Assembly (NCBI GenBank): GCA_030429235.1 | Contig: JAUIDB010000007.1 | Span: 52,677 to 116,676 of the forward strand | Direction of reading: 5' to 3' | DNA: 64,000 nucleotides | Source of the DNA: Thermoanaerobaculia bacterium | GTDB taxonomy: Bacteria > Acidobacteriota > Thermoanaerobaculia > Multivoradales > JAIOJS01 | Shown here: positions 42,446 through 63,767 of the stretch, piece by piece | How the letters are laid out: the number at the start of each line of letters is the position of its first letter | Position numbering within the stretch: the first letter of the stretch is position 1 | Notes under the pieces: model-generated | Seen by the model: only the letters and a program-made list of their open reading frames with translations | Database searches by the model: none | What the model was told of the DNA's origin: nothing | Program-made: the position numbers and the translations under genes

Positions 42446-42524
42446 CGCCCCTCGACCACGCGGCCTGGCGGCGTCGCCCACGTCGATCCGCCGGACACTA
42501 GCCGTTCGGATATCCTCGTCGGCC

Positions 42525-43679
42525 ATGGACCCGATTCGGCCGGACCCGCTGCTGCGTCATGGCTGGCGGAGCTACGCGATCCTGGGAGTGGCTTGGCTCC
42601 TGCCTGCTCTGATGGTGGCGGCCCTGGTCTACGCGATCCAGGCGGGGGCCGAGGGGAGCGAGTCCCTCGGTACCATCCTCCTCCGGAGTCTCTGGTTCTA
42701 CGGTCAACTCGCGGTCCTTTGCCCCCTGGTCTACCGGCTGCAGCAGCACCTGTCGTTCTCGCCGGGGCGCTGGCCGATCGCTTGTCTCGCGTACGGGGTG
42801 TTGGCGGTGGGCGTCGTCGTGGCGCTCACGGCTCTGAGCGGGGTGGCGAACTGGGTCCTGGACCAGGGCGAAACAACCCTTGCCGAGTTCGTTCGGCTCG
42901 AGTTCACGACGCCACCGGGTCAGTTCCAGGCCGTCGTCTACCTCTTCTACTTTGCGCTGATCGTGGCGGCGATGATGATCGTCAGCCTGCGGCGACAGAG
43001 CCGCCGGCAGGGCGAGCAAGCCGCTGAGCTGGCCCTGCAGGCGTCGCGGCTCGAGGCTCAGGTGGCTCTCGCCCGGCTGAAGGCACTCGAGAGCCAGCTG
43101 AACCCCCACTTCCTGTTCAACGCGCTCAACGGCGTAGCCTCCCTGGTCCAGCTCGGGCGCTCCGACCAGGCCTACGAAGCGATCGCTCTGCTGGGCGAAC
43201 TCCTGCGTGAGAGCCTGCACGAGGGGGATCGCCACTCGATCTCCCTGGAGCGGGAGGTCGAGTTGCTCGAGAAGTACCTCGATCTCGAGCGGATCCGCTT
43301 CAGCGATCGGCTGCGGGTCTCGGTCGCGGTCGACGCGGCGTGTTCGTCGGCGGTGGTGCCGGCGATGGTCTTGCAGCCACTGGTCGAGAACGCCTTGCGG
43401 CACGGGATCTCGGAACATCCGGACGCCGGACAGCTACAGATCGAGGTGCGTCGCCACGGTCCGCGGGTCGTGGTCGCGGTGCAGGACGATGGCCCCGGGG
43501 TGCCAGCGGGTTGGAGTTTCGACGCCGACGCCGGGGTCGGTCTGCGCAACCTGCGGGATCGACTCGCGGTGCACTACGGGTCGGTCTTCGAGTTGACGCT
43601 GGCCTCGGCTCGCCCCCGTGGAACCCTGGTGACGCTGGCGTTCCCCTATCGAACCCTTGCGGGAGGGGCGGCGCCGTGA
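42525..43679 (+). CDS. Sensor histidine kinase, LytS/YehU family
   Basis: ATG at 42525. Six N-terminal TM helices. His_kinase motif LNPHFLFNALN. HATPase_c region. The longer track ORF (from 41913) overlaps the SSADH gene in another frame and is rejected. Confidence 0.85.
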   Translation: MDPIRPDPLLRHGWRSYAILGVAWLLPALMVAALVYAIQAGAEGSESLGTILLRSLWFYGQLAVLCPLVYRLQQHLSFSPGRWPIACLAYGVLAVGVVVALTALSGVANWVLDQGETTLAEFVRLEFTTPPGQFQAVVYLFYFALIVAAMMIVSLRRQSRRQGEQAAELALQASRLEAQVALARLKALESQLNPHFLFNALNGVASLVQLGRSDQAYEAIALLGELLRESLHEGDRHSISLEREVELLEKYLDLERIRFSDRLRVSVAVDAACSSAVVPAMVLQPLVENALRHGISEHPDAGQLQIEVRRHGPRVVVAVQDDGPGVPAGWSFDADAGVGLRNLRDRLAVHYGSVFELTLASARPRGTLVTLAFPYRTLAGGAAP

Positions 43680-44470
43680 TCCGCACCATGATCGTCGACG
43701 ACGAACCCCTGGCGCGCGAGCTGATTCGGGATCTCTTGCGTGAGGATTCCGAGATCGAGGTGGTGGCCGAGTGTAGGAACGGTCAGGAAGCGCTGGAGTC
43801 CATCGGCCTGCTCCAACCCGACCTGCTCTTCCTCGATGTGCAGATGCCGGGAGCCTCGGGAATGGAGGTGGTGGCGCGACTGCCTGCCGACCAGATCCCG
43901 CAAGTGGTGTTCGTGACGGCCTACGATCGGTATGCCATCGAAGCGTTCCGGGCGCGGGCGCTCGACTACCTGCTCAAACCGTTCTCGAAGGAGCGCTTTC
44001 GGGAGAGTCTGCGCCGCGCCAAGGAGGCGATCCAGCGTCGCAGGTTGGTCGGCCTGGCGGCGGAGATGACGGCGCTGGCACGCTCCTACGCCGACCTCCA
44101 CGCGTCCCTGGCGGTCGACACCGAGGTCGAGACCGAATTCGTGGAGTTCTTGAGCTTTCGGTCGGGGCGGCAGCTCAAGCGTCTGGCGGTGTCGGAGATC
44201 GCCTGGATCGAGGCCGCCAACCAGTACGTGCGGCTCCACACCGCCACCGGAAGCTGCCTGCTCGCCAGGTCGCTGAACAGCCTCGAGCGCGAGCTCGATC
44301 CCGCCCGTTTCTGCCGGATCCACCGCTCGACGATCGTCCAGACTTCGCAGGTGCGGGAGGTGCGACTCGAAAAGAACGGCGCCTGCTCGGTTCTGCTGGT
44401 CGGAGGAGAGCGGTTGCGCGTGAGCCGCCGCCGGCGCCAGGCCTGGGAAGCGGCGTGGTCCGCCCGCTGA
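43676..44470 (+). CDS. LytTR-family response regulator
   Basis: GTG at 43676 overlaps the kinase stop. Receiver domain (MIVDDEPLAR...LDVQMPG) plus C-terminal LytTR DNA-binding domain. Confidence 0.85.
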   Translation: MIRTMIVDDEPLARELIRDLLREDSEIEVVAECRNGQEALESIGLLQPDLLFLDVQMPGASGMEVVARLPADQIPQVVFVTAYDRYAIEAFRARALDYLLKPFSKERFRESLRRAKEAIQRRRLVGLAAEMTALARSYADLHASLAVDTEVETEFVEFLSFRSGRQLKRLAVSEIAWIEAANQYVRLHTATGSCLLARSLNSLERELDPARFCRIHRSTIVQTSQVREVRLEKNGACSVLLVGGERLRVSRRRRQAWEAAWSAR

Positions 44471-44603
44471 CACTGCCGTTGGCGAGGTGAGGCGACCGTT
44501 GGCCGGCAACATGGGCCGTTGACCGGCTAGGTTCTCGGTCTCCTACCGGGTCCTCGTAGGATGGCTCCACCCGACGGTGCAGTCGAGAGCGAGGAGGTGC
44601 AGC

Positions 44604-46205
44604 ATGGCCGTTTCCGGAGTCGAAAACCAGTCGAAGCGAACCCGGTGCCGCGTCGGCTGGTGGGGGGTCGTGCTCCTCGTCGTGTGCCCTAGTCTGGGGG
44701 CTCAGGTGACGCCCCGGATGGAGCAGGATCCGACCCGAAACAACCTGGTCCACCCCGAGGGACACCCCACGGCGCCGGCGGGTACCCTGGGGGAGGTCCT
44801 CTGGCGCGGAGAGGGCCCGGTGGATCTGGTGCTGATCGCCGGCGCGGGGTTCGGGGGCGACGTCTTCGAGGAGTTCATGCAACGGCATAGCGCCGACTAC
44901 CGGATGGCGGCGGTGACCCTGCCTGGCTTCGGGGGCAGTCTCGCCCCACCGATGCCTCCGGCGAAGACCAGCTACGGAGAGCTCAGCTGGACCCGCTCGG
45001 TGCGCGACGCCGTGGCCGAGCTCATCGTGCGGGAGGAACTCGATCGCCCGGTGGTGGTCGGACACTGGCTCGCGGCCACGACGGTGGCCATCGAACTCGC
45101 CCTGGAGCGTCCCGACCTCGTCCGCGGTGCGGTGGTGGTCAGCGGGGTTCCCAAGTTCGTGCCGATGGAAGGCAGCGGCATGGCCGAGCCAGAGACGGTG
45201 GCCCAGCGGGTGGCGATGGTCGACCACTACCTGGCGCCCGAGTGGTTCAAGACGGTGACCCGCGCGACGTGGGATGACGGCAACTTTCTGCCCCGGGACT
45301 ACGCGATCCACCCGCTGCGGGCGCAGCAGCTCTGGATCGAGGCGGCTCGGGCGAGCCTGCCGGTTTGGATCCGCTACCTCTGTGAGGCGTGGGCGCAGGA
45401 CAGCACGGCGGAGCTGGGGGAGCTGCAGGTGCCGCTCCTGGTGTTGCAGCCCGAGTTGGATTCGCTCTACCACCAGGGGCCGCAGACCGGGGCCTACCTC
45501 GACGCGTTTCTGCACCGGGCCTGGGAGGGTGTGGACTCGCGGTTCGAGAACGTGACGGTGGCGACGATCCACGACTCGCGAGTCTTCATCATGGACGACC
45601 AGCCGGAGCTCCTGTCGGAAGCGGTGGTCCGGTTCGTCGCCGAGGCTTCGGCCCGTCCCCGGACGGTGCGGACCCCGAGACTCCGTCCTCCGGCCCCGGA
45701 TCCACTCGCGCTCTGGGGCGGTACGGTGGTCGGCGAAGGGGATCACTACGATCTGACCGATGCCGGAGTGTCGATCCGTCGGCCCGACGCCAGCTGGACG
45801 CTCGAGCCGGTGCTCGAGGAGCCGCCGCTGCTCGCTCGTCTCTGGGACGAAGAAGAGAGCGCGACGGTGACGCTGCAGGTGCGCCCCACGATGGGTTTCG
45901 CCCTGGAAGAACTGATCCCGATGGTGCTGAGCAACCTGTCCCAGCAGTTGGCCGACTTCGTGCTGCTGAGCCGCGAGCGCAGCCGTTTCGGTGCGCAGGC
46001 TGGGTGGCGGCTCGAATTCCGCCATCGAGGGGAGGACTCCGACCCCCAGACCCTCCTCTGGGTGACCGACTTCGACCGCGGTCAGATGATCAGTCTGACC
46101 GCGCAGGCGGCGGTCGATCGTTTCGAGGCGTTGCGGGATCCGTTCGCGGCGATGGCCGACAGCGTCCGGCTGGAGGCGTCTACCCCAGCGGAAGGATCGG
46201 AGTGA
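44604..46205 (+). CDS. Secreted alpha/beta-hydrolase-fold protein with non-canonical nucleophile elbow (G-H-W-L-A) and ~220-aa C-terminal extension
   Basis: ATG at 44604 with GAGGAGG SD 6 nt upstream. Signal peptide. a/b-hydrolase core (LVLIAGAGFGG...VVVGHWLAATTVAIE), where the expected Ser of GxSxG is Trp. Confidence 0.55.
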   Translation: MAVSGVENQSKRTRCRVGWWGVVLLVVCPSLGAQVTPRMEQDPTRNNLVHPEGHPTAPAGTLGEVLWRGEGPVDLVLIAGAGFGGDVFEEFMQRHSADYRMAAVTLPGFGGSLAPPMPPAKTSYGELSWTRSVRDAVAELIVREELDRPVVVGHWLAATTVAIELALERPDLVRGAVVVSGVPKFVPMEGSGMAEPETVAQRVAMVDHYLAPEWFKTVTRATWDDGNFLPRDYAIHPLRAQQLWIEAARASLPVWIRYLCEAWAQDSTAELGELQVPLLVLQPELDSLYHQGPQTGAYLDAFLHRAWEGVDSRFENVTVATIHDSRVFIMDDQPELLSEAVVRFVAEASARPRTVRTPRLRPPAPDPLALWGGTVVGEGDHYDLTDAGVSIRRPDASWTLEPVLEEPPLLARLWDEEESATVTLQVRPTMGFALEELIPMVLSNLSQQLADFVLLSRERSRFGAQAGWRLEFRHRGEDSDPQTLLWVTDFDRGQMISLTAQAAVDRFEALRDPFAAMADSVRLEASTPAEGSE

Positions 46206-46215
46206 CGATTTCGGG

Positions 46216-46246
46216 CCAGGCTCCGCGCATTCCGGCGGAGCCTTGG
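46216..46246. terminator. Hairpin (ccaGGCTCCGC-gcattcc-GGCGGAGCCttgg) between convergent genes
   Basis: 8-11 bp GC-rich stem in the 48-bp gap between the + gene ending at 46205 and the - gene ending at 46254. Candidate bidirectional intrinsic terminator. Confidence 0.3.
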
Positions 46247-46253
46247 TCAGCCC

Positions 46254-46931
46254 TCAGCGTCGAGCGAGCAGGTGGTCGGCGAGCTCCTCACACTGGCGGA
46301 GGAAGGCGTCGACCTCGCTGGGACGGACTCGTTTGGCGGCGCGGGTGAGGACCAGCCACCGACCCTGACCCTCGGCCGTCCAGCCAGGGTTCAGTTCCAA
46401 CCAGTTGCGAGCCTGCACCCCGAGCTGGGTTCGAACTGCCTCCTCGTCGTCTCCCTGGACCAGGTAGAGCTTCGAGAAGTGCGGAGCGTCCTCGAAGTCG
46501 ATGTCCTGCATGCCGAAGCCGGCCCCGATGCGGTGGAAGGTGTGCTCGGGGCGCAACTGGAACCTGGGCAACTCAGCTTGCCCCTGGCGCGCGAAGACGG
46601 TCTGGTGCACGTTCGACTGGTGCTGCCCGCCTCCCTGGGTAAAGCGGTAGTCGAAGAGCAGGCTCTCGCCCTCGCCGCCGCGCCGGCGCCAGACGTTGCG
46701 GACCCGGCCGCGACGACCCCGGGCGAAGAAGGGGAGGTCAGTCAGCTCGCCGCTGAGCACCGTCGGATCGGTTTCGAGGAAGTCGTAGCCCAGGCTGAAC
46801 GCCGCACTCTGCAGCTCCTCGGTGCGTCGCCTCCCCGCGCGTTGGGCCAGGATCCCGATGGTCACGATGAGCAGGAGCACGCTGCCGACCGCGGCCGCGG
46901 CGATGAGGATGGTCTGGGTCGTGGGATCCAT
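46254..46931 (-). CDS. Hypothetical membrane-anchored protein (single N-terminal TM)
   Basis: 225 aa. N-terminus TILIAAAAVGSVLLLIVTIGILA, then a soluble domain. No family recognised. Confidence 0.45.
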   Translation of the reverse strand: MDPTTQTILIAAAAVGSVLLLIVTIGILAQRAGRRRTEELQSAAFSLGYDFLETDPTVLSGELTDLPFFARGRRGRVRNVWRRRGGEGESLLFDYRFTQGGGQHQSNVHQTVFARQGQAELPRFQLRPEHTFHRIGAGFGMQDIDFEDAPHFSKLYLVQGDDEEAVRTQLGVQARNWLELNPGWTAEGQGRWLVLTRAAKRVRPSEVDAFLRQCEELADHLLARR

Positions 46932-47074
46932 GGCGGGCCTTTCTGGGATGGGACTGCTCTACTCTACGTTCGAGCGGTGGTTCCTCTTCCCAACTTCTCT
47001 CGTTGCCGCCCCCGCCCTCCTCGCTGGCTCCTCGGGGGGCGAGGAGGAACCAGGTCGTATGACCCGGCGCGAAC

Positions 47075-48241
47075 CTAGAATCGGAAGTTGTAGTCGACGC
47101 GGAACCGCTTGCCATCCTGGATCGAGGAGATCGCTTCGACGAGGTACAGGCGGGCGGTCAGGCTGCCGGCCGAACCTAGGCCGTAGACGAACCGCAACTC
47201 GTGGCCGCGCAGGTCGCTGCTGTCGGTCTCGGTGGCCGAGCCCCAGCGCACCCAGTCGTCCTGGGCGTAGGAAGCGTTGACGGCCAGGGCCTCGATCGAG
47301 GCGTACCAATACCCCAGGGCCCACTCTCCGGCCTGTCGAGCCTGGCCCCACTGGACGGAACCGATCCAGCCGTCGGTGGCTCCACGGCGGGCGAAGGCGA
47401 AGGAGTCCCCGGGGCCGTAGTTCTCGGAGTTGTGCAGGAGATCGAGGCCCAGCTTCAGAGGCCGATCCGCCGCTCGAAGGCGAGCCTGGGCGCTGAGGAG
47501 GCCGACCGAGTAGTCTCGCAACCCGTTGCCGTGACGGAGTCGGACGGCGTCGGGATCCTCGGGATCGGCCCCGAAGTGGTAGTAGCCGGCAGCCACCGTC
47601 CAGGCGCAACCCGCCGCCGGCTGCTCCCAGACCACTTGCAGTGCCGACAGAGAGCCCGCGAAGTCCTTCATCCCCACGGGCAGCCCGAACTCGGCGGCGC
47701 GGACCGAGAGGCCGCCAGAGGTCCAGCCGCCGGCCAGCCCTACCGGGGTGACGTCGTCATCCCAGAAGAACTCGTTCTGCTTCCAGAAGGGAAAACCGTT
47801 GCGTCCGGCCCAGCCCCAGGTGTGGTCGCCTCTCGCTTCGAGATACCACCGGTCGAAGCTGAAGTCCGCGCTCCCGGTGTCGTTGTTGTCGAAGTCGAGG
47901 ACGGTGACGTGGGGACTCTGGTGGCTGGCCTCGGCGCCGCTGCGGAGCCGCAACCCGAAGGTCAGACGCGGGGTCGCTTCCCACTGCATCCCGAGGCGGG
48001 CCCGCACCCGAGCCCGGAGGCGATCCGCGCGCTCGGTGCCGTCGGCTCGCTGCGAGTCCCAGTCCTGCTCGAGTCGCAGGCGGAAGTCTCCGGACCAGGA
48101 GGGACGGGACGTTTCCTCGGTCGGTTCGGTGGCGACAGCGATGCCCGAACCGAGGAGGATCAGCACGCTGAGTCGGCCGACCGCCAAGAGGGGGCGCCAG
48201 AGGAGGAGTCGAGAGGATGACGTTAGCATCGACCCCATCAT
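47075..48241 (-). CDS. Putative porin / outer-membrane beta-barrel
   Basis: ATG-ATG at 48241 (MMGSMLTSSSRLLLWRPLLAVGRLSVLILLGSGIAVA). Alternating aromatic strands. C-terminal YNFRF terminus typical of OMPs. Confidence 0.6.
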   Translation of the reverse strand: MMGSMLTSSSRLLLWRPLLAVGRLSVLILLGSGIAVATEPTEETSRPSWSGDFRLRLEQDWDSQRADGTERADRLRARVRARLGMQWEATPRLTFGLRLRSGAEASHQSPHVTVLDFDNNDTGSADFSFDRWYLEARGDHTWGWAGRNGFPFWKQNEFFWDDDVTPVGLAGGWTSGGLSVRAAEFGLPVGMKDFAGSLSALQVVWEQPAAGCAWTVAAGYYHFGADPEDPDAVRLRHGNGLRDYSVGLLSAQARLRAADRPLKLGLDLLHNSENYGPGDSFAFARRGATDGWIGSVQWGQARQAGEWALGYWYASIEALAVNASYAQDDWVRWGSATETDSSDLRGHELRFVYGLGSAGSLTARLYLVEAISSIQDGKRFRVDYNFRF

Positions 48242-48342: not shown

Positions 48343-50034
48343 ATGCTCAAGACCTCTCGCTTTTCCTTGCTCGTCGTTCTGCTCCTGGTGCTTCAGGGTT
48401 GTGGAGGGGCTCCGGAATCGGGGACGCCGGCCTCGACCGCCAGCGGTGAGACCCTGACCGCCGAGTTTTGGCCCACGGAGACCTACGGCAGCGAGGCGTC
48501 CGACACCAAGAACGTGATCGTCGCCACCTACACCAGCGGCACCCTCGAGCCGTCCGCTCTTACGAGTTTCGAGGCCGAGTTCCGCGGCGAGGCCTTCGGC
48601 CGTCGCCCCCTGGCGGCTCCCCGCATCGAGTCGGGGGTCGAGATTCGCGACTGGCTCGATCTCGAGTCGGACCTCTCGGCCGAGGCCTTTCGGGAGAGCT
48701 GGAATCGGTACCTTGCCGAGTTCGAGGAGATTCTGACCGTCGAGAAGCACACCTGGGAGGTGCAGCTCCGGCCCGGCCCGGCGGGTGAGCCGGGCATCGA
48801 GTCGAAGGAGTCGATGTGGATTCTCGGCCGACTCGCCGACGGCCGCCTGCGCGAGGATCGCCTCAACCTGGTGCTCGACCTCGTGAAGCGCGGCGACGAG
48901 TGGCGCCTGTCGGGGGTTTCGTCGGAGGCCGGACGCACCACGATCGCTCCCGGTCCTTACTTCCACGACGTCACCAGTCAGGTCCTACCTCCCGGTTTCG
49001 ACCAGACCGGAGCCCAGATCTACACCGACGGCGGTCCGGTGCTGGCCGATTTCGACGGCGACGACGACATCGATCTTTTCCTCCCCCGCCTCCACGCGTC
49101 GGCTCGGCTCTACGCCAACGACGGTGAGGGGTACTTCGACGACGTCACTGCCGCCTGGGGGCTCGAGGTGAACGCCCTGCGGCAAGGTACCAACAGTGGA
49201 CTGTTCCTCGATTTCGACAACGACGGCGATCTCGATCTGGTAGCCGGGGTGAAGCGCGAAGGGCTGCTGCTGTTCCGCAATCAGGGGAGTTCGTTCGAGG
49301 ACGTTACCGGACCGTCGCCGCTGGGGGGAGCCGGCGAGTGGGAAGCCCTGGCCGCTGCCGACTACGACGGCGACCGCCGGATCGACATCTACCTGACGAA
49401 CTACGGGCTGATCGATCCCGACCACCAGCCCGAGAGTTACGTCGACGCCCGCGACGGACAACCGAACGTGCTGCTGCGCAACCTCGGCGATGGCCGATTC
49501 GAGGACGCCACCGAGGCCGCCGGCCTGGTTCCCAACCGGGAGCGGTGGTCGTACGCGGCCGCCTGGGCTGACTACGATGGGGACGGCGACCTCGACCTCT
49601 ACGTCGCCAACGACTACGCCACCAACAGCCTCTACCGCAATCGCGGCGAAGGCACCTTCGAAGAGGTCGCGGCGGAAGTCGGGGCTCTCGACGGTGGCAA
49701 CGGCATGGGTGTCTCCTGGGCCGATTTCGACGGCGACCTGCGGCTGGACCTCTACATCTCCAACATGCAGTCGTTCGCCGGCAACCGCATCACGCGGCTG
49801 GAGAACTTTCCCGGAACCGCCGACCAGCGGGCCCTCTATCGGCGGTTCTCCAAGGGCAACACACTGCTGCAGAACCAAGGCGACGGCACCTTCGAGGACG
49901 TCACCGAGGCTTCCGGGGCCAAGCCCGCTTTCTGGGCCTGGGGCAACGCTCCGCTGGACTACGACTCCGACGGTGACTTGGACATCCTGGTCAGCGGGGG
50001 GTTCTACACGGGGCTTCGCGCCAAAGACACGTGA
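48343..50034 (+). CDS. CRTAC1-family lipoprotein, FG-GAP/VCBS-repeat part; truncated by an in-frame TGA at 50032
   Basis: Lipobox LVLQGCG. Multiple DxDxDGxxD FG-GAP blades (FDGDDDIDLFL, DFDNDGDLDLV, DYDGDGDLDLYV). The reading frame continues in the same frame after TGA 50032-50034 into the next ORF. Confidence 0.6.
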   Translation: MLKTSRFSLLVVLLLVLQGCGGAPESGTPASTASGETLTAEFWPTETYGSEASDTKNVIVATYTSGTLEPSALTSFEAEFRGEAFGRRPLAAPRIESGVEIRDWLDLESDLSAEAFRESWNRYLAEFEEILTVEKHTWEVQLRPGPAGEPGIESKESMWILGRLADGRLREDRLNLVLDLVKRGDEWRLSGVSSEAGRTTIAPGPYFHDVTSQVLPPGFDQTGAQIYTDGGPVLADFDGDDDIDLFLPRLHASARLYANDGEGYFDDVTAAWGLEVNALRQGTNSGLFLDFDNDGDLDLVAGVKREGLLLFRNQGSSFEDVTGPSPLGGAGEWEALAAADYDGDRRIDIYLTNYGLIDPDHQPESYVDARDGQPNVLLRNLGDGRFEDATEAAGLVPNRERWSYAAAWADYDGDGDLDLYVANDYATNSLYRNRGEGTFEEVAAEVGALDGGNGMGVSWADFDGDLRLDLYISNMQSFAGNRITRLENFPGTADQRALYRRFSKGNTLLQNQGDGTFEDVTEASGAKPAFWAWGNAPLDYDSDGDLDILVSGGFYTGLRAKDT

Positions 50035-50055
50035 AGCATCTTCTGGCGCCAGGTC

Positions 50056-51117
50056 TTGGCGTCTGAGAGTGCGGGGCAGGAAGGGGACAAGGATACCGGT
50101 CACCGCAACCACTTCCAGCTGCTGCAGGAGGAGGGATTCTCCTGGAGCGGCAAAGAGCCGAACACGCTCTTCCAGAATCGAGGCGACGGCACTTTCGACG
50201 AGGTCGGGAACGTCCTCGGGACCTATCTGCGACTCGACAGCCGGGGTGCCGCGGCCGCTGATTTCGACGGCGACGGTGATCTCGACCTGGCGGTCTACAA
50301 CCGCAACAACCCGGTGATCAAGCTGTTCCGCAACGACGCCCCGGGGCAGGGCAACGCCCTGGAGATCGACCTCACCGGCACCGAGTCCGGGCCGATGGCG
50401 GTGGGAGCGCAGGTGGTGGCTCGCTGTGGCGAGCGGCAGCTCCTGCGCCAGGTCGAGGTAGGGTCGGGATTCATCTCGCAGCCACCTCCTCGCCTGCACT
50501 TCGGTCTGGGCGAGTGTCGGACGGTCGACTCGGTCTCCATCCGTTGGCCTAGTGGGCTCGAGCAGACCCTGTCCGACCTACCGGTCAACCACCGGGTCGA
50601 GATCACCGAGGGCGAGAACGAGTTCGAGAGCTTTGCCCTCCGCCCCCGCAACTACAACCGCCGGGACCTGGCTCCGGTGGCGGGGGAGCTTTCGGCTCCG
50701 CGCCCCGACCTCCGGTTCCGTCGACTGACGGGCGAGGGCGAGCTGGCGCTGGCGGATCTCGACCGGGAGACCGTCGTCCTCAACTTCTGGGCCACCTGGT
50801 GCACCGCCTGTGTGCTGGAGATGCCGGACCTCCAGTCGCTGGCGTCGCGTTTTGCCGGGAGGGTGCGCTTCCTCGGGGTCTCCCTCGATCTGGAGCGAAC
50901 CGACGACGAGATCGTTGCGTTCGCAGAGGAGCTCGGAACCACCTACGAGCAGCTCCTGGGTACGGTGGAGGACCAGGTGCCGTTCAGTTCGCTGGGGGCT
51001 TCGCCGCCGGGGGCCGTGCCGCTCACCGCCGTGATCCACCAAGGCACGGTGCGGGCGGTGTACGTCGGGCAGATCGACGTCGACGATCTCGCCCAGCTGC
51101 TCGAGAGCCTGGAGTGA
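50056..51117 (+). CDS. CRTAC1-family C-terminal part: last FG-GAP blade, ASPIC/UnbV domain and TlpA-like thioredoxin domain (WCTAC)
   Basis: Same frame as 48343..50034. ASPIC/UnbV-like segment (GAQVVARCGERQLLRQVEVGSGFISQ). TlpA/ResA-like CxxC NFWATWCTAC. Either an independently initiated fragment (GTG 50056) or the downstream half of a nonsense-interrupted gene. Confidence 0.55.
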   Translation: MASESAGQEGDKDTGHRNHFQLLQEEGFSWSGKEPNTLFQNRGDGTFDEVGNVLGTYLRLDSRGAAAADFDGDGDLDLAVYNRNNPVIKLFRNDAPGQGNALEIDLTGTESGPMAVGAQVVARCGERQLLRQVEVGSGFISQPPPRLHFGLGECRTVDSVSIRWPSGLEQTLSDLPVNHRVEITEGENEFESFALRPRNYNRRDLAPVAGELSAPRPDLRFRRLTGEGELALADLDRETVVLNFWATWCTACVLEMPDLQSLASRFAGRVRFLGVSLDLERTDDEIVAFAEELGTTYEQLLGTVEDQVPFSSLGASPPGAVPLTAVIHQGTVRAVYVGQIDVDDLAQLLESLE

Positions 51118-54100
51118 CACCCGCGAGGGCGGTCGTGGCCCTCGGCGTCGGTCTCGGACTGGGGCTCGCCGTCGGCTGCTCTCCGGCGCCGAATCCCTCG
51201 GGGCCGTCGTCAGAGCCTGGCCAGGAGCAGCCGCTGGTACCCGACCTGATGGTGCGCGGGGTGGCGCACGCCGAGATCGACGAGTGGCCGGCGGCCATCG
51301 CCAGCTTCGAGCAGGCACTGGCCATCGGCGGCGACGATCCTGTGCTGGTGTACAACCTGGCCGTCTGTCAGCTGCGTTCCGACCAGCCAGAGTTCGCCGT
51401 CGCCACCCTCCAGCGCATCGACGACACGGCGCCGGCCGAGGTCCGGGCGCGAGCCCACTACCTGCGCGGCAAACTAGCCCTGGAGGCGGGGGATCTCGAG
51501 TCGGAACTGGCGGCCTACCGGCAGGCGATGGCCCTGGACCCGAGCGAGCCGGCGTACCCCTTTGCCCTCTCCCAGTTGGTGCCGAGGCTCGGCGCGGCGG
51601 GCGAGGCCGAGGTCGGTCCCCTGCTCGAGCGGGCGGCCGAGATCTGGCCCGACAACGCTCGGCTGGAGGCGGATCTGATCGCCTGGAGTCTGAGTCAGCC
51701 CGATCCCGACGCGTGGCCAGGCGCCCTCGACCGTCTGTCGCGCCTCACCCCCGGAGAAGCACAGGCGGCGGCACTGCTCGAACGGGCACGAGCCGAACTG
51801 GTGGCCGAACCGGAGCGGGCGCCGACCTCGGCGCGGCGAGCCCTCAACGTCCTGCGGCCGGGAAAGCGGTTCCAGAGCGACTGGGCCGCCCTCGAAGCTC
51901 GACTGGCCTTGCTGCCTCGCCGCTGGCCGGCGAGGCCGGAACTCCTCGCGAGTCCAGCGGCTGCGGTCGCGACTCCGACGCTCGAGCTCGCCGACCTGCT
52001 ACCGGACCCCGCGCTGGCTAGCGACGAGGGCGTGCTCGCATTGGTCGCTTCGATCGATGCAGTCGACGCCGCGTCGCCTGCCCTACGGGCCACGGATCTG
52101 ACCCTCCTGACCGACCGGCGACTCGTGGCCCTCGACCGCGCACGGGACAGCTTCCGTCCGGTGGGGGAAGTGGCCGGTGGCCGCCGACTCCTGATCGGAG
52201 ACCTCGATGCCGACGGCCGGATGGAGCGAATCGTTCTCGGTGACCACGGACTCGCGGTGTTCCGTCGGCAGGCCGAGGAGGGATGGTCCCAGGACCCAGG
52301 GCCGGCCAGTCCGCCGCTGTCCGACGGCATCCTGGTCGACTACGAACTCGATGGCGACCTCGATCTGCTACTGATCGAGGCCCAGGGCGAGATCCTGCTA
52401 GCGCGCAACCTCGGCGAGGGGGGCCTCGCCGCCCCCACCGACGCCGGCCTTCCCGTCGCTCGCGGGACTCGGTTGCTGGCTCGCGACCTCGACGGCGACG
52501 TCGATCCCGAGCTTCTGGTCGCCGACGGCGAGCGGATCACTCTGCTGCGCAATCTGCGGCAGGAGGAGTACCGGTGGGACGGGGAGCTCTCCGTGGAGGG
52601 TGCGGTCGAGGACTGGCTGGTGATCGACCTGGATGGCGATGCCACCCTCGACCTGATCGTGGTGGTCGCGGGCCGGCTGCGGATCTTTCGCTCGCGCGGG
52701 CTGCAGGGGTTCGAGCCCGATCTCGAGGCGGACGCCACTGTGGCCTCGCGGCTCGGGGAAGCCTCCGCGGTCCTCTCGATCGACGCCGCGGACCTGGATC
52801 TCGACGGCGCTCCGGAACTGGTGGTCGAGTATCGCGACGTCGGCGAGGGGCGCACGGTCGAGGTGCTAGCGATCGACAGCTGGACCTCCCTCGTCGCGGT
52901 CCACGGTCTCGACCCGAAGGGCGAGGGGTTGGTGACGACCGACCTCGACCGCGATCGCGATCCGGACCTCGTCCTGCTGACTCCGAGGGGCCTGAAGACG
53001 CTGCACTCCGGCGGAGCCGAGGGGCAAGGGTGGGTCGAGCTCGTGCTTCGGGGCCTGGCCAGCAAGGTTCCCCTCGACGGTCGGGGCGCCAGAGTCGACG
53101 TCTGGTTCGGGCTCGAGCGCCGCTCTTTCCAACCGGACCTACCTGAGATCGTGGTCGGAGCCGGCGGCCGCCGCCCTGCCTTGGTGGAAGTGACCTGGCC
53201 GAACGGCATCACCGAGTTCGTCTTCGAGCCCGAGGTCGAGAGGACCCACGAGGTGAAGCAGGAGTTGCGGGTCGAAGGGTCCTGTCCCTTCCTCTACGCC
53301 TCGGACGGGCGCGACCTGCGGTTCGTGACCGACGTCTTGAGTCTCGCCCCCCTGGGGATGCTGGCCGACGGCGAGCGGTACGTTCCGGCCGACCCCGAAG
53401 AGTACCTCCGGCTGCCGGATTGGGTGGTCCCAGATGTCGACAGCGGCGATCTCAGGTTGGCGATTACCGAGGAGCTGCGAGAAGTGGCGTACCTCGATCA
53501 GGCCGAGCTGGTGGTGGTCGATGCGCCAGCCGAGGTCAACGTCTACAACGGCGAGCGCTGGATCGAGGGGATGGTCGAGGGCTTGGATCTCCGGCTGCTG
53601 GGCCCCCTGCAGCGCCCCACCCGCGTGCGGGATGCGGCGGACCGCGACGTGCTGGATCTGGTCGCGGAACGCGACCATCGTTACCTGCGGCATTCCGCCC
53701 CGGGCCGTCGGTATCAGGGGGCCGGCCACGCGCGGGCCCTCGAGTTCGCCGTGCCTTCGGAGCTGGCGGCGACCGGGCGGGTGGCGCTCCTCATGACCGG
53801 CTGGCTGCACTGGGGCAACACCAGCACCAACGTCGCTCGCTCCCAGGACCCCGAGGGCCGTCCGGTCTTTCCCTACCTGGAGCTCCCCAACGCCGATGGC
53901 AGCTGGCGCCGCGTGGAGCTGGCGGTGGGGCTGCCGGCCGGCAAGACCAAGCCGATCGTGGTCGAACTCGGCGATCGGCTCGATCCCGAGGATCCGCGGT
54001 TCCGGATCACCACCGACTTCGAGGTCTACTGGGACTGGATCGCGGTCGCCGAGGCACTGCCCCTAGGCCGCAGTCCACACCGCGAGCAGCGCCTGGCCCC

Positions 54101-54617
54101 GGCGCGGGCAGAGCTGGGCTTCGCCGGCTTTTCTCGCTGGTACCGGCCGGCTCCCGACGGCCCCTACCTCTTCGATCGGACCGATCGCCGACCCTACCCG
54201 TGGCGGCCGACAGAGAGCGGCGAGCGCGTGCTCTCCTGGACCGAGCACCAGGGGTTCTACTCGCCCTACGGGGAGGCGACGGCGGCGATCACCGGACTCG
54301 ACGACCAGTTGGTGGTCTTCGGCTCGGGAGAAGAGCTCACTCTGGACTTCGATCTGGGTGCTCTCGCCCCGCCACCGGCGGGCTGGGAACGAACCTACTT
54401 CCTTCACCTCGAGGGTTGGGAGAAGGATGGTGATCCCAATGTGGCCTGCTCCCAGACCGTGGGCCCACTGCCCAGGCGGGGAGCCGGCGCCTACTCTTGC
54501 GAAGGTGTGGTCTCGCCGAATGCCGAGCCGAGCACCGCCACCGGTCGCTGGGTCGACGGTCAGCGGCTCCACCGCCGGGTGCGGGCGGCGCTTCGGAGTG
54601 GCCTGGGACCCCGTTAG
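51114..54617 (+). CDS. TPR-repeat lipoprotein with FG-GAP repeats, ASPIC/UnbV domain and large C-terminal domain
   Basis: GTG at 51114 overlapping the upstream stop (GTGA). Lipobox LAVGCS. N-terminal TPR-like helices. FG-GAP blades (LIGDLDADGRME, YELDGDLDLLL). ASPIC-like segment (GQGWVELVLRGLASKVPLDGRGARVDVWFG). ~440-aa C-terminal domain. The track ORF from 50799 is an upstream in-frame extension. Confidence 0.75.
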   Translation: MTPARAVVALGVGLGLGLAVGCSPAPNPSGPSSEPGQEQPLVPDLMVRGVAHAEIDEWPAAIASFEQALAIGGDDPVLVYNLAVCQLRSDQPEFAVATLQRIDDTAPAEVRARAHYLRGKLALEAGDLESELAAYRQAMALDPSEPAYPFALSQLVPRLGAAGEAEVGPLLERAAEIWPDNARLEADLIAWSLSQPDPDAWPGALDRLSRLTPGEAQAAALLERARAELVAEPERAPTSARRALNVLRPGKRFQSDWAALEARLALLPRRWPARPELLASPAAAVATPTLELADLLPDPALASDEGVLALVASIDAVDAASPALRATDLTLLTDRRLVALDRARDSFRPVGEVAGGRRLLIGDLDADGRMERIVLGDHGLAVFRRQAEEGWSQDPGPASPPLSDGILVDYELDGDLDLLLIEAQGEILLARNLGEGGLAAPTDAGLPVARGTRLLARDLDGDVDPELLVADGERITLLRNLRQEEYRWDGELSVEGAVEDWLVIDLDGDATLDLIVVVAGRLRIFRSRGLQGFEPDLEADATVASRLGEASAVLSIDAADLDLDGAPELVVEYRDVGEGRTVEVLAIDSWTSLVAVHGLDPKGEGLVTTDLDRDRDPDLVLLTPRGLKTLHSGGAEGQGWVELVLRGLASKVPLDGRGARVDVWFGLERRSFQPDLPEIVVGAGGRRPALVEVTWPNGITEFVFEPEVERTHEVKQELRVEGSCPFLYASDGRDLRFVTDVLSLAPLGMLADGERYVPADPEEYLRLPDWVVPDVDSGDLRLAITEELREVAYLDQAELVVVDAPAEVNVYNGERWIEGMVEGLDLRLLGPLQRPTRVRDAADRDVLDLVAERDHRYLRHSAPGRRYQGAGHARALEFAVPSELAATGRVALLMTGWLHWGNTSTNVARSQDPEGRPVFPYLELPNADGSWRRVELAVGLPAGKTKPIVVELGDRLDPEDPRFRITTDFEVYWDWIAVAEALPLGRSPHREQRLAPARAELGFAGFSRWYRPAPDGPYLFDRTDRRPYPWRPTESGERVLSWTEHQGFYSPYGEATAAITGLDDQLVVFGSGEELTLDFDLGALAPPPAGWERTYFLHLEGWEKDGDPNVACSQTVGPLPRRGAGAYSCEGVVSPNAEPSTATGRWVDGQRLHRRVRAALRSGLGPR

Positions 54618-59198: not shown

Positions 59199-63767
<4,569 letters not shown>

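Follow-up and report, generated by a model that had tools for sequence, protein, structure and literature searches.

A conserved in-frame UGA followed by a SECIS-like hairpin points to a new selenoprotein family combining a CRTAC1-like propeller with a thioredoxin-fold domain

The 64-kb stretch of a Thermoanaerobaculia genome analyzed here (hereinafter, the window) contains, at positions 48343-51117, an open reading frame (ORF) interrupted by a single in-frame TGA, and this locus is very probably one gene that encodes a lipoprotein with selenocysteine (Sec) at residue 564, a CRTAC1-like propeller and a TlpA-like domain with a CxxC motif. As judged by comparison of the related loci, the TGA is conserved and is followed by a conserved, covarying hairpin that fits the consensus of the bacterial selenocysteine insertion sequence (SECIS). 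Under the proposed mechanism, the UGA at 50032-50034 would be decoded as Sec, with the hairpin at 50045-50063 (loop GGUCU) acting as a bacterial SECIS: following the standard model, the hairpin would bind SelB carrying Sec-tRNA(Sec), SelB would deliver the Sec-tRNA(Sec) to the ribosome paused at the UGA, and translation would continue, yielding a 924-residue lipoprotein with Sec564 in an insertion of the propeller. We infer the identity of residue 564 as Sec, the export of the protein and the role of Sec as a redox center. The coordinates of all features are collected in Table 1.

Translation of 48343-51117 in one frame yields 563 codons, the TGA and 360 further codons ahead of the stop at 51115-51117, in agreement with a preliminary description of this DNA that had noted the in-frame TGA; the window DNA at the site reads GCC AAA GAC ACG TGA AGC ATC TTC TGG CGC CAG GTC TTG GCG. 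In the public annotation, the locus appears as two proteins, of 563 and 353 amino acids. The upstream half opens, as judged by eye, with a lipoprotein signal, MLKTSRFSLLVVLLLVLQGC, in which Cys20 is invariant among 30 orthologs, and includes an N-terminal domain of approximately 200 residues without a family match and five FG-GAP_3 repeats detected with Pfam (PF13517, E 3e-43). The same frame 3' of the TGA encodes, according to Pfam, one further FG-GAP repeat, an UnbV_ASPIC domain and an AhpC-TSA/Redoxin/Thioredoxin domain with a CxxC motif that is invariant in all 24 complete orthologs. The FG-GAP repeats upstream, the ASPIC domain and the TlpA-like WCTAC motif (50797-50811) downstream and the GTGA at 51114 had all been recognized in the preliminary description and are indeed present. 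Comparison with NCBIfam detects TlpA/ResA/DsbE-like similarity in the C-terminal domain only, with scores far below the equivalog cut-offs, so membership in the TlpA/ResA type is assigned at the domain level only; there is no NCBIfam model for the N-terminal half.

The same interruption is found in numerous relatives. When used to query 5.8 billion proteins, the read-through sequence retrieved approximately 72 orthologous N-terminal ORFs (49-100% identity, about 540-600 amino acids), all of which stop at ...GGFYTG.SA[KA]DT, and the reciprocal search yielded approximately 85 separately called downstream parts of about 352-361 amino acids, labelled "ASPIC/UnbV domain-containing protein"; among the top matches of both searches, there were no full-length forms with a sense codon, including Cys, at this column. 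A query with the C-terminal half among representatives returned mostly giant multi-repeat FG-GAP/ASPIC proteins and added little. The loci that were read as DNA comprise L001-L020 from species-representative genomes, L042-L054 from metagenomes and the loci of a second subfamily (see below). The preliminary description had proposed a comparison of orthologous loci for an intact single gene; none with a sense codon was found, and the codon at the site is TGA in 37 of the 37 loci, with no instance of TAA or TAG. The metagenome-assembled genomes (MAGs) that carry L001-L020 are labelled as Thermoanaerobaculia, Acidobacteriota, Anaerolineae/Ardenticatenales/Caldilineae, Planctomycetota and "Rickettsiales"; altogether, the TGA-carrying loci span at least three phyla (MAGs of Acidobacteriota, Chloroflexota and Planctomycetota) as well as metagenomes, with protein identity down to 49%. 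Past the TGA, the frame is open for 354-371 codons in nearly every locus of sufficient length (two long-read loci stop sooner) and encodes the conserved peptide S[VI]FWRQV[LM]ASES..GHRNHF..L.EEG.SWSG.EPN.LFQNRG.

Among the 25 long ORFs of the window, 15 end with TGA, 9 with TAG and 1 with TAA. With TGA as the most frequent of the ordinary stops, a genome-wide reassignment of this codon was rejected. Furthermore, given this mixed stop usage, one would expect at least some of the 37 lineages to have replaced an unselected stop with TAG or TAA. A compositional scan for other recoded TGA codons in the window and all loci found only the site at 50032. A second flagged TGA, at window position 46203 on the forward strand, was dismissed as a false positive, its Arg-rich downstream frame (RFRARLRAFRR...) resembling an overlapping non-coding frame, and the remaining candidates in the window and the loci were, by appearance, frame overlaps or adjacent genes.

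Comparison of sequences and structures shows that the downstream frame codes for part of the same protein fold as the upstream half. Both halves match the murine CRTAC1 chain 9etn_A, the N-terminal half over residues 4-350 and the C-terminal half over residues 355-499, and the TGA falls in an insertion near CRTAC1 residues 350-355, between consecutive parts of one propeller/ASPIC unit. The AlphaFold model of a paralog with a sense codon at the site, P0225 (predicted local distance difference test score 81.7, predicted template modelling score 0.78), matches 9etn_A with E 6.5e-28 and a template modelling score of 0.70, and its C-terminal domain matches ResA and TlpA. In the sense-codon paralogs, the sequence SFFWRQVV runs on unbroken from the upstream sequence and, in the orthologs, codons +1 to +7 after the TGA are kept as protein, with variation at +3 and +7 that is synonymous only.

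The preliminary description had listed recoding, including Sec insertion, among the options and had proposed folding the sequence downstream of the TGA; a SECIS-type hairpin is found there at the right distance, accompanied by synonymous constraint and compensatory base pairs. The core hairpin starts 10 nucleotides and its loop 17 nucleotides past the UGA, and the 27-nucleotide extended element folds with -12.5 kcal/mol. According to the published consensus, a bacterial SECIS has an apical loop of 3-9 nucleotides, an upper stem of 4-16 base pairs, a G in the first two loop positions, a UGA-to-loop distance of 16-37 nucleotides and a minimum free energy that does not exceed -7.5 kcal/mol (PMC13188914). 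Each of the 34 distinct TGA-containing sequences satisfies this consensus, with a GGUCN or GUN loop, a stem of 5-10 base pairs and a spacing of 17-18 nucleotides. When 19 orthologs are aligned by codon, synonymous-codon identity peaks, among 576 ten-codon windows, in the one beginning with the TGA (0.80, vs a mean of 0.572 with a standard deviation of 0.089); the codon choice is AGC for Ser+1 and CGC for Arg+5 in 19 of 19 orthologs, CAG for Gln+6 in 17 of 17 and GCG for Ala+9 in 18 of 19.

Across the 34 sequences, the 7-base-pair core is paired in 97.5% of the cells. Pair 18-28 is CG in 28 sequences, GU in 3, GC in 2 and AU in 1, and is never unpaired; pair 20-26 is AU in 31, GU in 2 and GC in 1, and pair 15-31 is GU in 26 and GC in 8. 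The changes in pair 18-28 couple the third, synonymous position of the Arg codon (CGC/CGG/CGA) to the middle position of codon +9 (GCG Ala, UCG Ser, CCG Pro). The observed covariation score was reached by none of 500 shuffles, and with shifted 3' partners, pairing amounts to 30-61%. Taken at the level of sequence comparison, these patterns indicate that the hairpin is a selected RNA element, more than a by-product of the peptide.

The combination of the TGA with the hairpin occurs in two architectures of one superfamily, beside sister proteins with an ordinary residue at the same column. The second TGA subfamily is represented by P0011 in locus L036 (...NGYITNEDTKDL-TGA-SFVWRQVVSQSP), and a search with this region retrieved 26 more short ORFs (P0232-P0257) with a ...[DS].DL end at the same column. 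The subfamily motif is NGYIT.EDT.DL-TGA-SFFWRQVVS.SP, followed by ASPIC, AhpC/TSA and TPR domains. In the DNA of all five additional loci (L065-L069), which include a Tara Oceans scaffold with 51% G+C, TGA is again found at the site, ASPIC, AhpC/TSA and TPR are encoded in the same frame beyond it, and the hairpin persists despite substitutions in its stem. Three long-read assemblies (ERZ250395xx) contain an extra upstream frame change (L065:4969-5001, L067:2841-2858 and L066:5001-5040) that is probably an indel sequencing error rather than biology. Approximately 65-69 sense-codon homologs have S, D, A, G, E, M, N, W or Q at the Sec column. Five sense-codon controls that encode the same peptide use CGC, AGG, CGG, AGG and CGG for Arg+5, and four of the five are unable to form the hairpin.

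Several observations weigh against Sec insertion. Most of the covariation comes from six sequences of the second subfamily, so the number of independent covariation events is small, and the stem overlaps the conserved peptide FWRQV.A, such that its conservation is partly protein-driven. The fifth control, L037:4828 (P0076, with Asp at the column), passes the bacterial SECIS criteria, with a CGUGC loop and -10.1 kcal/mol; the consensus is permissive and a fit to it alone is accordingly weak evidence, and sequences that encode FWR(Q/H)V may have an inherent tendency to fold in this way. Rfam yielded nothing relevant around the site, although no match is expected for a bacterial SECIS. None of the approximately 65-69 sense-codon homologs has Cys at the Sec column, whereas nearly all known selenoproteins have Cys-containing homologs (PMC12013277), and a selenoprotein family without a Cys counterpart is atypical.

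The Sec machinery is likewise sparse around these genes. ARAGORN detected no tRNA in the 64-kb window and no tRNA-Sec in 20 loci, and tblastn with the Escherichia coli SelA, SelB and SelD proteins against approximately 630 kb (the window and the loci) detected only one gene, for SelA in locus L013, an Ardenticatenales MAG; the search for selB, selC and selD that the preliminary description had proposed thus produced SelA in one relative, with selA, selB, selD and tRNA-Sec not found in the window or the other flanks searched. The L013 protein (PF03841, E 8e-138) is 49% identical to E. coli SelA and demonstrates the capacity for Sec synthesis for that one carrier genome only. Between the TGA gene and the SelA gene in L013, there are a 309-amino-acid ORF and then overlapping ORFs with a sortase domain and an ABC-permease domain on opposite strands. 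Sec users do exist among Acidobacteriota, namely Occallatibacter riparius, with three known selenoprotein genes (PMC12013277).

Apart from Sec insertion, the UGA could be subject to programmed readthrough by a near-cognate or suppressor tRNA (e.g., for Trp), perhaps aided by the hairpin and the 3' A, such that a short form of 563 amino acids and a long form of 924 amino acids would be produced. We regard this explanation as improbable, even though it accommodates the absence of the Sec machinery from the window, the A that directly follows the UGA in all 37 sequences, and the many residues accepted at this column in the paralogs (S/D/A/G/E/M/N/W, never C), an indication that it may hardly matter which residue is inserted. 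The geometry of the hairpin and its GGU(C) apical loop are, however, typical of a SECIS that binds SelB and nearly match the apical motif of fdhF, and the SelA gene lies near the TGA gene in L013; moreover, we know of no bacterial precedent for SelB-independent, hairpin-stimulated readthrough conserved across phyla, which we count against this possibility.

A conserved two-gene arrangement, with termination at the TGA, production of the downstream part via re-initiation and assembly of the two pieces into a split propeller, appears quite improbable. All public gene calls split the locus (here, into 563 and 353 amino acids), and about half of the orthologs have ATG at codon +8, the start used by gene callers; in the 19 orthologs, this codon is ATG in 9, CTG in 8, GTG in 1 and TTG in 1. 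Given CTG in 8 of the 19, there is no conserved downstream start, and in the window itself the codon at 50056 is TTG rather than the GTG initially reported. In addition, codons +1 to +7 are protein-conserved and contiguous with the upstream sequence in the sense-codon paralogs, the split point lies inside a single CRTAC1-like unit, and a free stop should drift to TAG or TAA across 37 lineages. The downstream part has no signal peptide, even though its TlpA-like domain belongs to a type that acts outside the cytoplasm and the N-terminal half bears a lipoprotein signal. A separate downstream gene starting at 50056 was rejected on the grounds of the missing conserved start and the coding conservation of codons +1 to +7. 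The preliminary description had named orthologs with two separate genes, the second with a canonical start and a signal peptide, as evidence of a genuine two-gene arrangement: the orthologs are indeed called as two genes, yet neither a conserved start nor a signal peptide is present on the second. The remaining explanation, in which the window carries either a recent nonsense mutation that made a pseudogene or an error of sequencing or assembly, was prominent in that description, and a bare in-frame stop inside a domain is what it would produce; it is nevertheless vanishingly improbable and is refuted by the comparison of orthologs. Independent assemblies from separate studies and several phyla share this TGA, at the same column, across 37 loci and at protein identities down to 49%; the window sequence itself is also present in an independent Logan assembly, and the downstream half is under clear purifying selection. 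The proposed origin of the TGA by a single C>T change in an Arg codon fails because this codon in the paralog within the window (NYVRDIFEV, 60570-60572) is CGC, not CGA, and Arg is not representative of the homologous column, where the closer homologs have S, D, A or G.

Sec insertion, the explanation that we prefer, is of a known kind mechanistically; new are the family, the extracytoplasmic location and the missing Cys counterpart. As in E. coli fdhF, the in-frame UGA is followed by a hairpin in the coding region, the apical loop of which exposes GGU(C); the 7-mer CAGGUCU is identical, and GGU occupies positions +21 to +23 here vs +22 to +24 in fdhF, an offset of 1 nucleotide. The fdhF SECIS sequence was verified in 5,419 genomes; G23 and U24 of its loop are the SelB contacts. 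The fdhF protein is unrelated, and its SECIS differs from the one predicted here in the stem sequence and in that no bulged U is evident here; furthermore, fdhF has Cys-containing homologs, whereas the present family has none with Cys at the column. With murine CRTAC1 (9etn), the protein shares the FG-GAP beta-propeller followed by the UnbV_ASPIC domain, but it is a bacterial lipoprotein with an extra N-terminal domain of approximately 200 residues, carries the UGA-bearing insertion around CRTAC1 residues 350-355 and has a C-terminal thioredoxin-fold domain in place of the EGF domain; no CRTAC1 protein is known to contain Sec. The TlpA/ResA/DsbE oxidoreductases have the same thioredoxin fold with WCxxC, supported by matches to both models and structures, but here the domain is fused to a large propeller. 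Unlike the Sec-containing ResA-like proteins (NCBIfam NF041054, WAxxUGC_long), in the present family the predicted Sec is located approximately 255 residues upstream and the CxxC is all-Cys. A further comparison is with the sense-codon paralogs that combine TPR, FG-GAP, ASPIC and AhpC/TSA (e.g., P0081-P0120, about 1,280 amino acids), which share the architecture and the SFFWRQVV sequence after the column but have S, A, G or D at the column itself, no conserved hairpin and varied Arg codons. An FG-GAP, VCBS, ASPIC or CRTAC1 selenoprotein is not mentioned in BSepDB (2026), deep-Sep (2025), the reviews of 2022 and 2026 or full-text searches; NCBIfam has no FG-GAP/ASPIC/CRTAC1-type selenoprotein model, and the literature searched contains nothing relevant on Sec in Thermoanaerobaculia.

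In the model of P0225, the Sec-equivalent residue directly precedes a short helix (369-375, SFFWRQV) within an insertion of lower confidence; reactive Cys and Sec residues are usually located at the start of a helix, at its N-terminus. As a weak hypothesis, the fused CxxC domain would recycle the oxidized Sec, making this an extracytoplasmic redox protein. The GHRNHF motif, which was found neither in the sense-codon paralogs listed nor in the second-subfamily sequences looked at, could contribute to a catalytic or metal site as a possible partner of Sec, perhaps through His ligands. Because the paralogs use S, D, A, G, E, M, N or W at the column but never Cys, Sec564 possibly is not a stand-in for a catalytic Cys, a variant that we consider rather unlikely. 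It takes two forms. Sec may have arisen from a non-Cys residue on a latent hairpin encoded by FWRQV, which could have created a new redox or metal site in the extracytoplasmic CRTAC1-type propeller, with GHRNHF as part of it in the main clade. Alternatively, the UGA/SECIS event itself may be what is preserved, as a selenium-dependent switch between a 563-amino-acid propeller fragment and the full-length propeller-thioredoxin protein.

Table 1. Features of the predicted selenoprotein gene, its surroundings and related loci (window positions unless a locus is given)
Feature	Position	Strand	Remarks
Single predicted selenoprotein gene	48343..51117	+	924 codons + stop; CRTAC1-like FG-GAP propeller, UnbV/ASPIC, TlpA-like thioredoxin domain
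Lipoprotein-type signal peptide with lipobox LQGC	48343..48402	+	Cys20 at 48400-48402; judged by eye from the translation
Predicted Sec codon UGA, residue 564	50032..50034	+	TGA in 37/37 related loci
Codons +1 to +7, SIFWRQV	50035..50055	+	Between the UGA and the first start-type codon; conserved peptide, translated sequence rather than spacer
Extended hairpin	50041..50067	+	Lower stem of 2-3 bp (UUC/GAG) beneath a 1x1 internal loop; less conserved than the core
Predicted bacterial SECIS core, GGCGCCA-GGUCU-UGGCGUC	50045..50063	+	7-bp stem GGCGCCA/UGGCGUC; apical loop GGUCU at 50052-50056
GHRNHF motif	50098..50115	+	Conserved in the main TGA clade; 22 residues past the predicted Sec
UnbV_ASPIC domain	50398..50598	+	PF07593, E 8.7e-22; residues 122-188 of the downstream part
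TlpA/ResA/AhpC-TSA-type thioredoxin-fold domain	50734..51057	+	WCTAC at 50797-50811
TPR + FG-GAP lipoprotein gene	51114..54617	+	1,160-1,167 amino acids; signal ...GLAVGC; directly 3' of the TGA gene
Selenocysteine synthase gene SelA	L013:11099-12958	+	Ardenticatenales MAG JADYYS010000031.1; about 2.8 kb downstream of the TGA gene end
Second-subfamily TGA sites	L036:7681; L065:5433; L066:5334; L067:3191; L068:833; L069:341

The TPR/FG-GAP lipoprotein gene next to the TGA gene starts either with GTG at 51114, overlapping the preceding stop as GTGA, or with GTG at 51135, and the C-terminal half of its product (about 500 residues) has no Pfam match. In 14 related loci, a homolog of this gene adjoins the TGA gene; it follows directly in most of them, precedes the TGA gene in L007 and lies on the opposite strand in L020. 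On the 5' side (approximately 42500-48230; gene calls of L035), there are a LytTR-type two-component system (His_kinase and Response_reg/LytTR), two unassigned proteins and, on the opposite strand, a Porin_5 gene; a porin also adjoins the TGA gene in L001 and L008. Further downstream in the window, the forward-strand ORF at 59199-63767 (1,522 amino acids), the true start of which probably lies downstream of 59199, encodes two complete FG-GAP/UnbV_ASPIC (CRTAC1-like) units with TPR repeats between them and has neither an in-frame stop nor the FWRQV insertion.

If Sec is indeed inserted at the UGA, these genes would constitute a selenoprotein family that is missing from the literature, databases and NCBIfam models consulted. 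Its two subfamilies are distributed among Acidobacteriota, Chloroflexota and Planctomycetota from the environment as well as ocean metagenomes. The public gene calls examined cut these genes into two proteins, or into three where a long-read frameshift intervenes, so dozens of entries would be truncated and their domain architectures misread. Since homologs with Cys at this position are lacking, the family escapes the standard discovery route, which relies on Sec/Cys pairs, and thus would represent a blind spot in selenoproteome surveys. Sec would also enter the CRTAC1/ASPIC fold, beside a fused thiol-disulfide oxidoreductase domain, which would provide a testable redox hypothesis for this fold.

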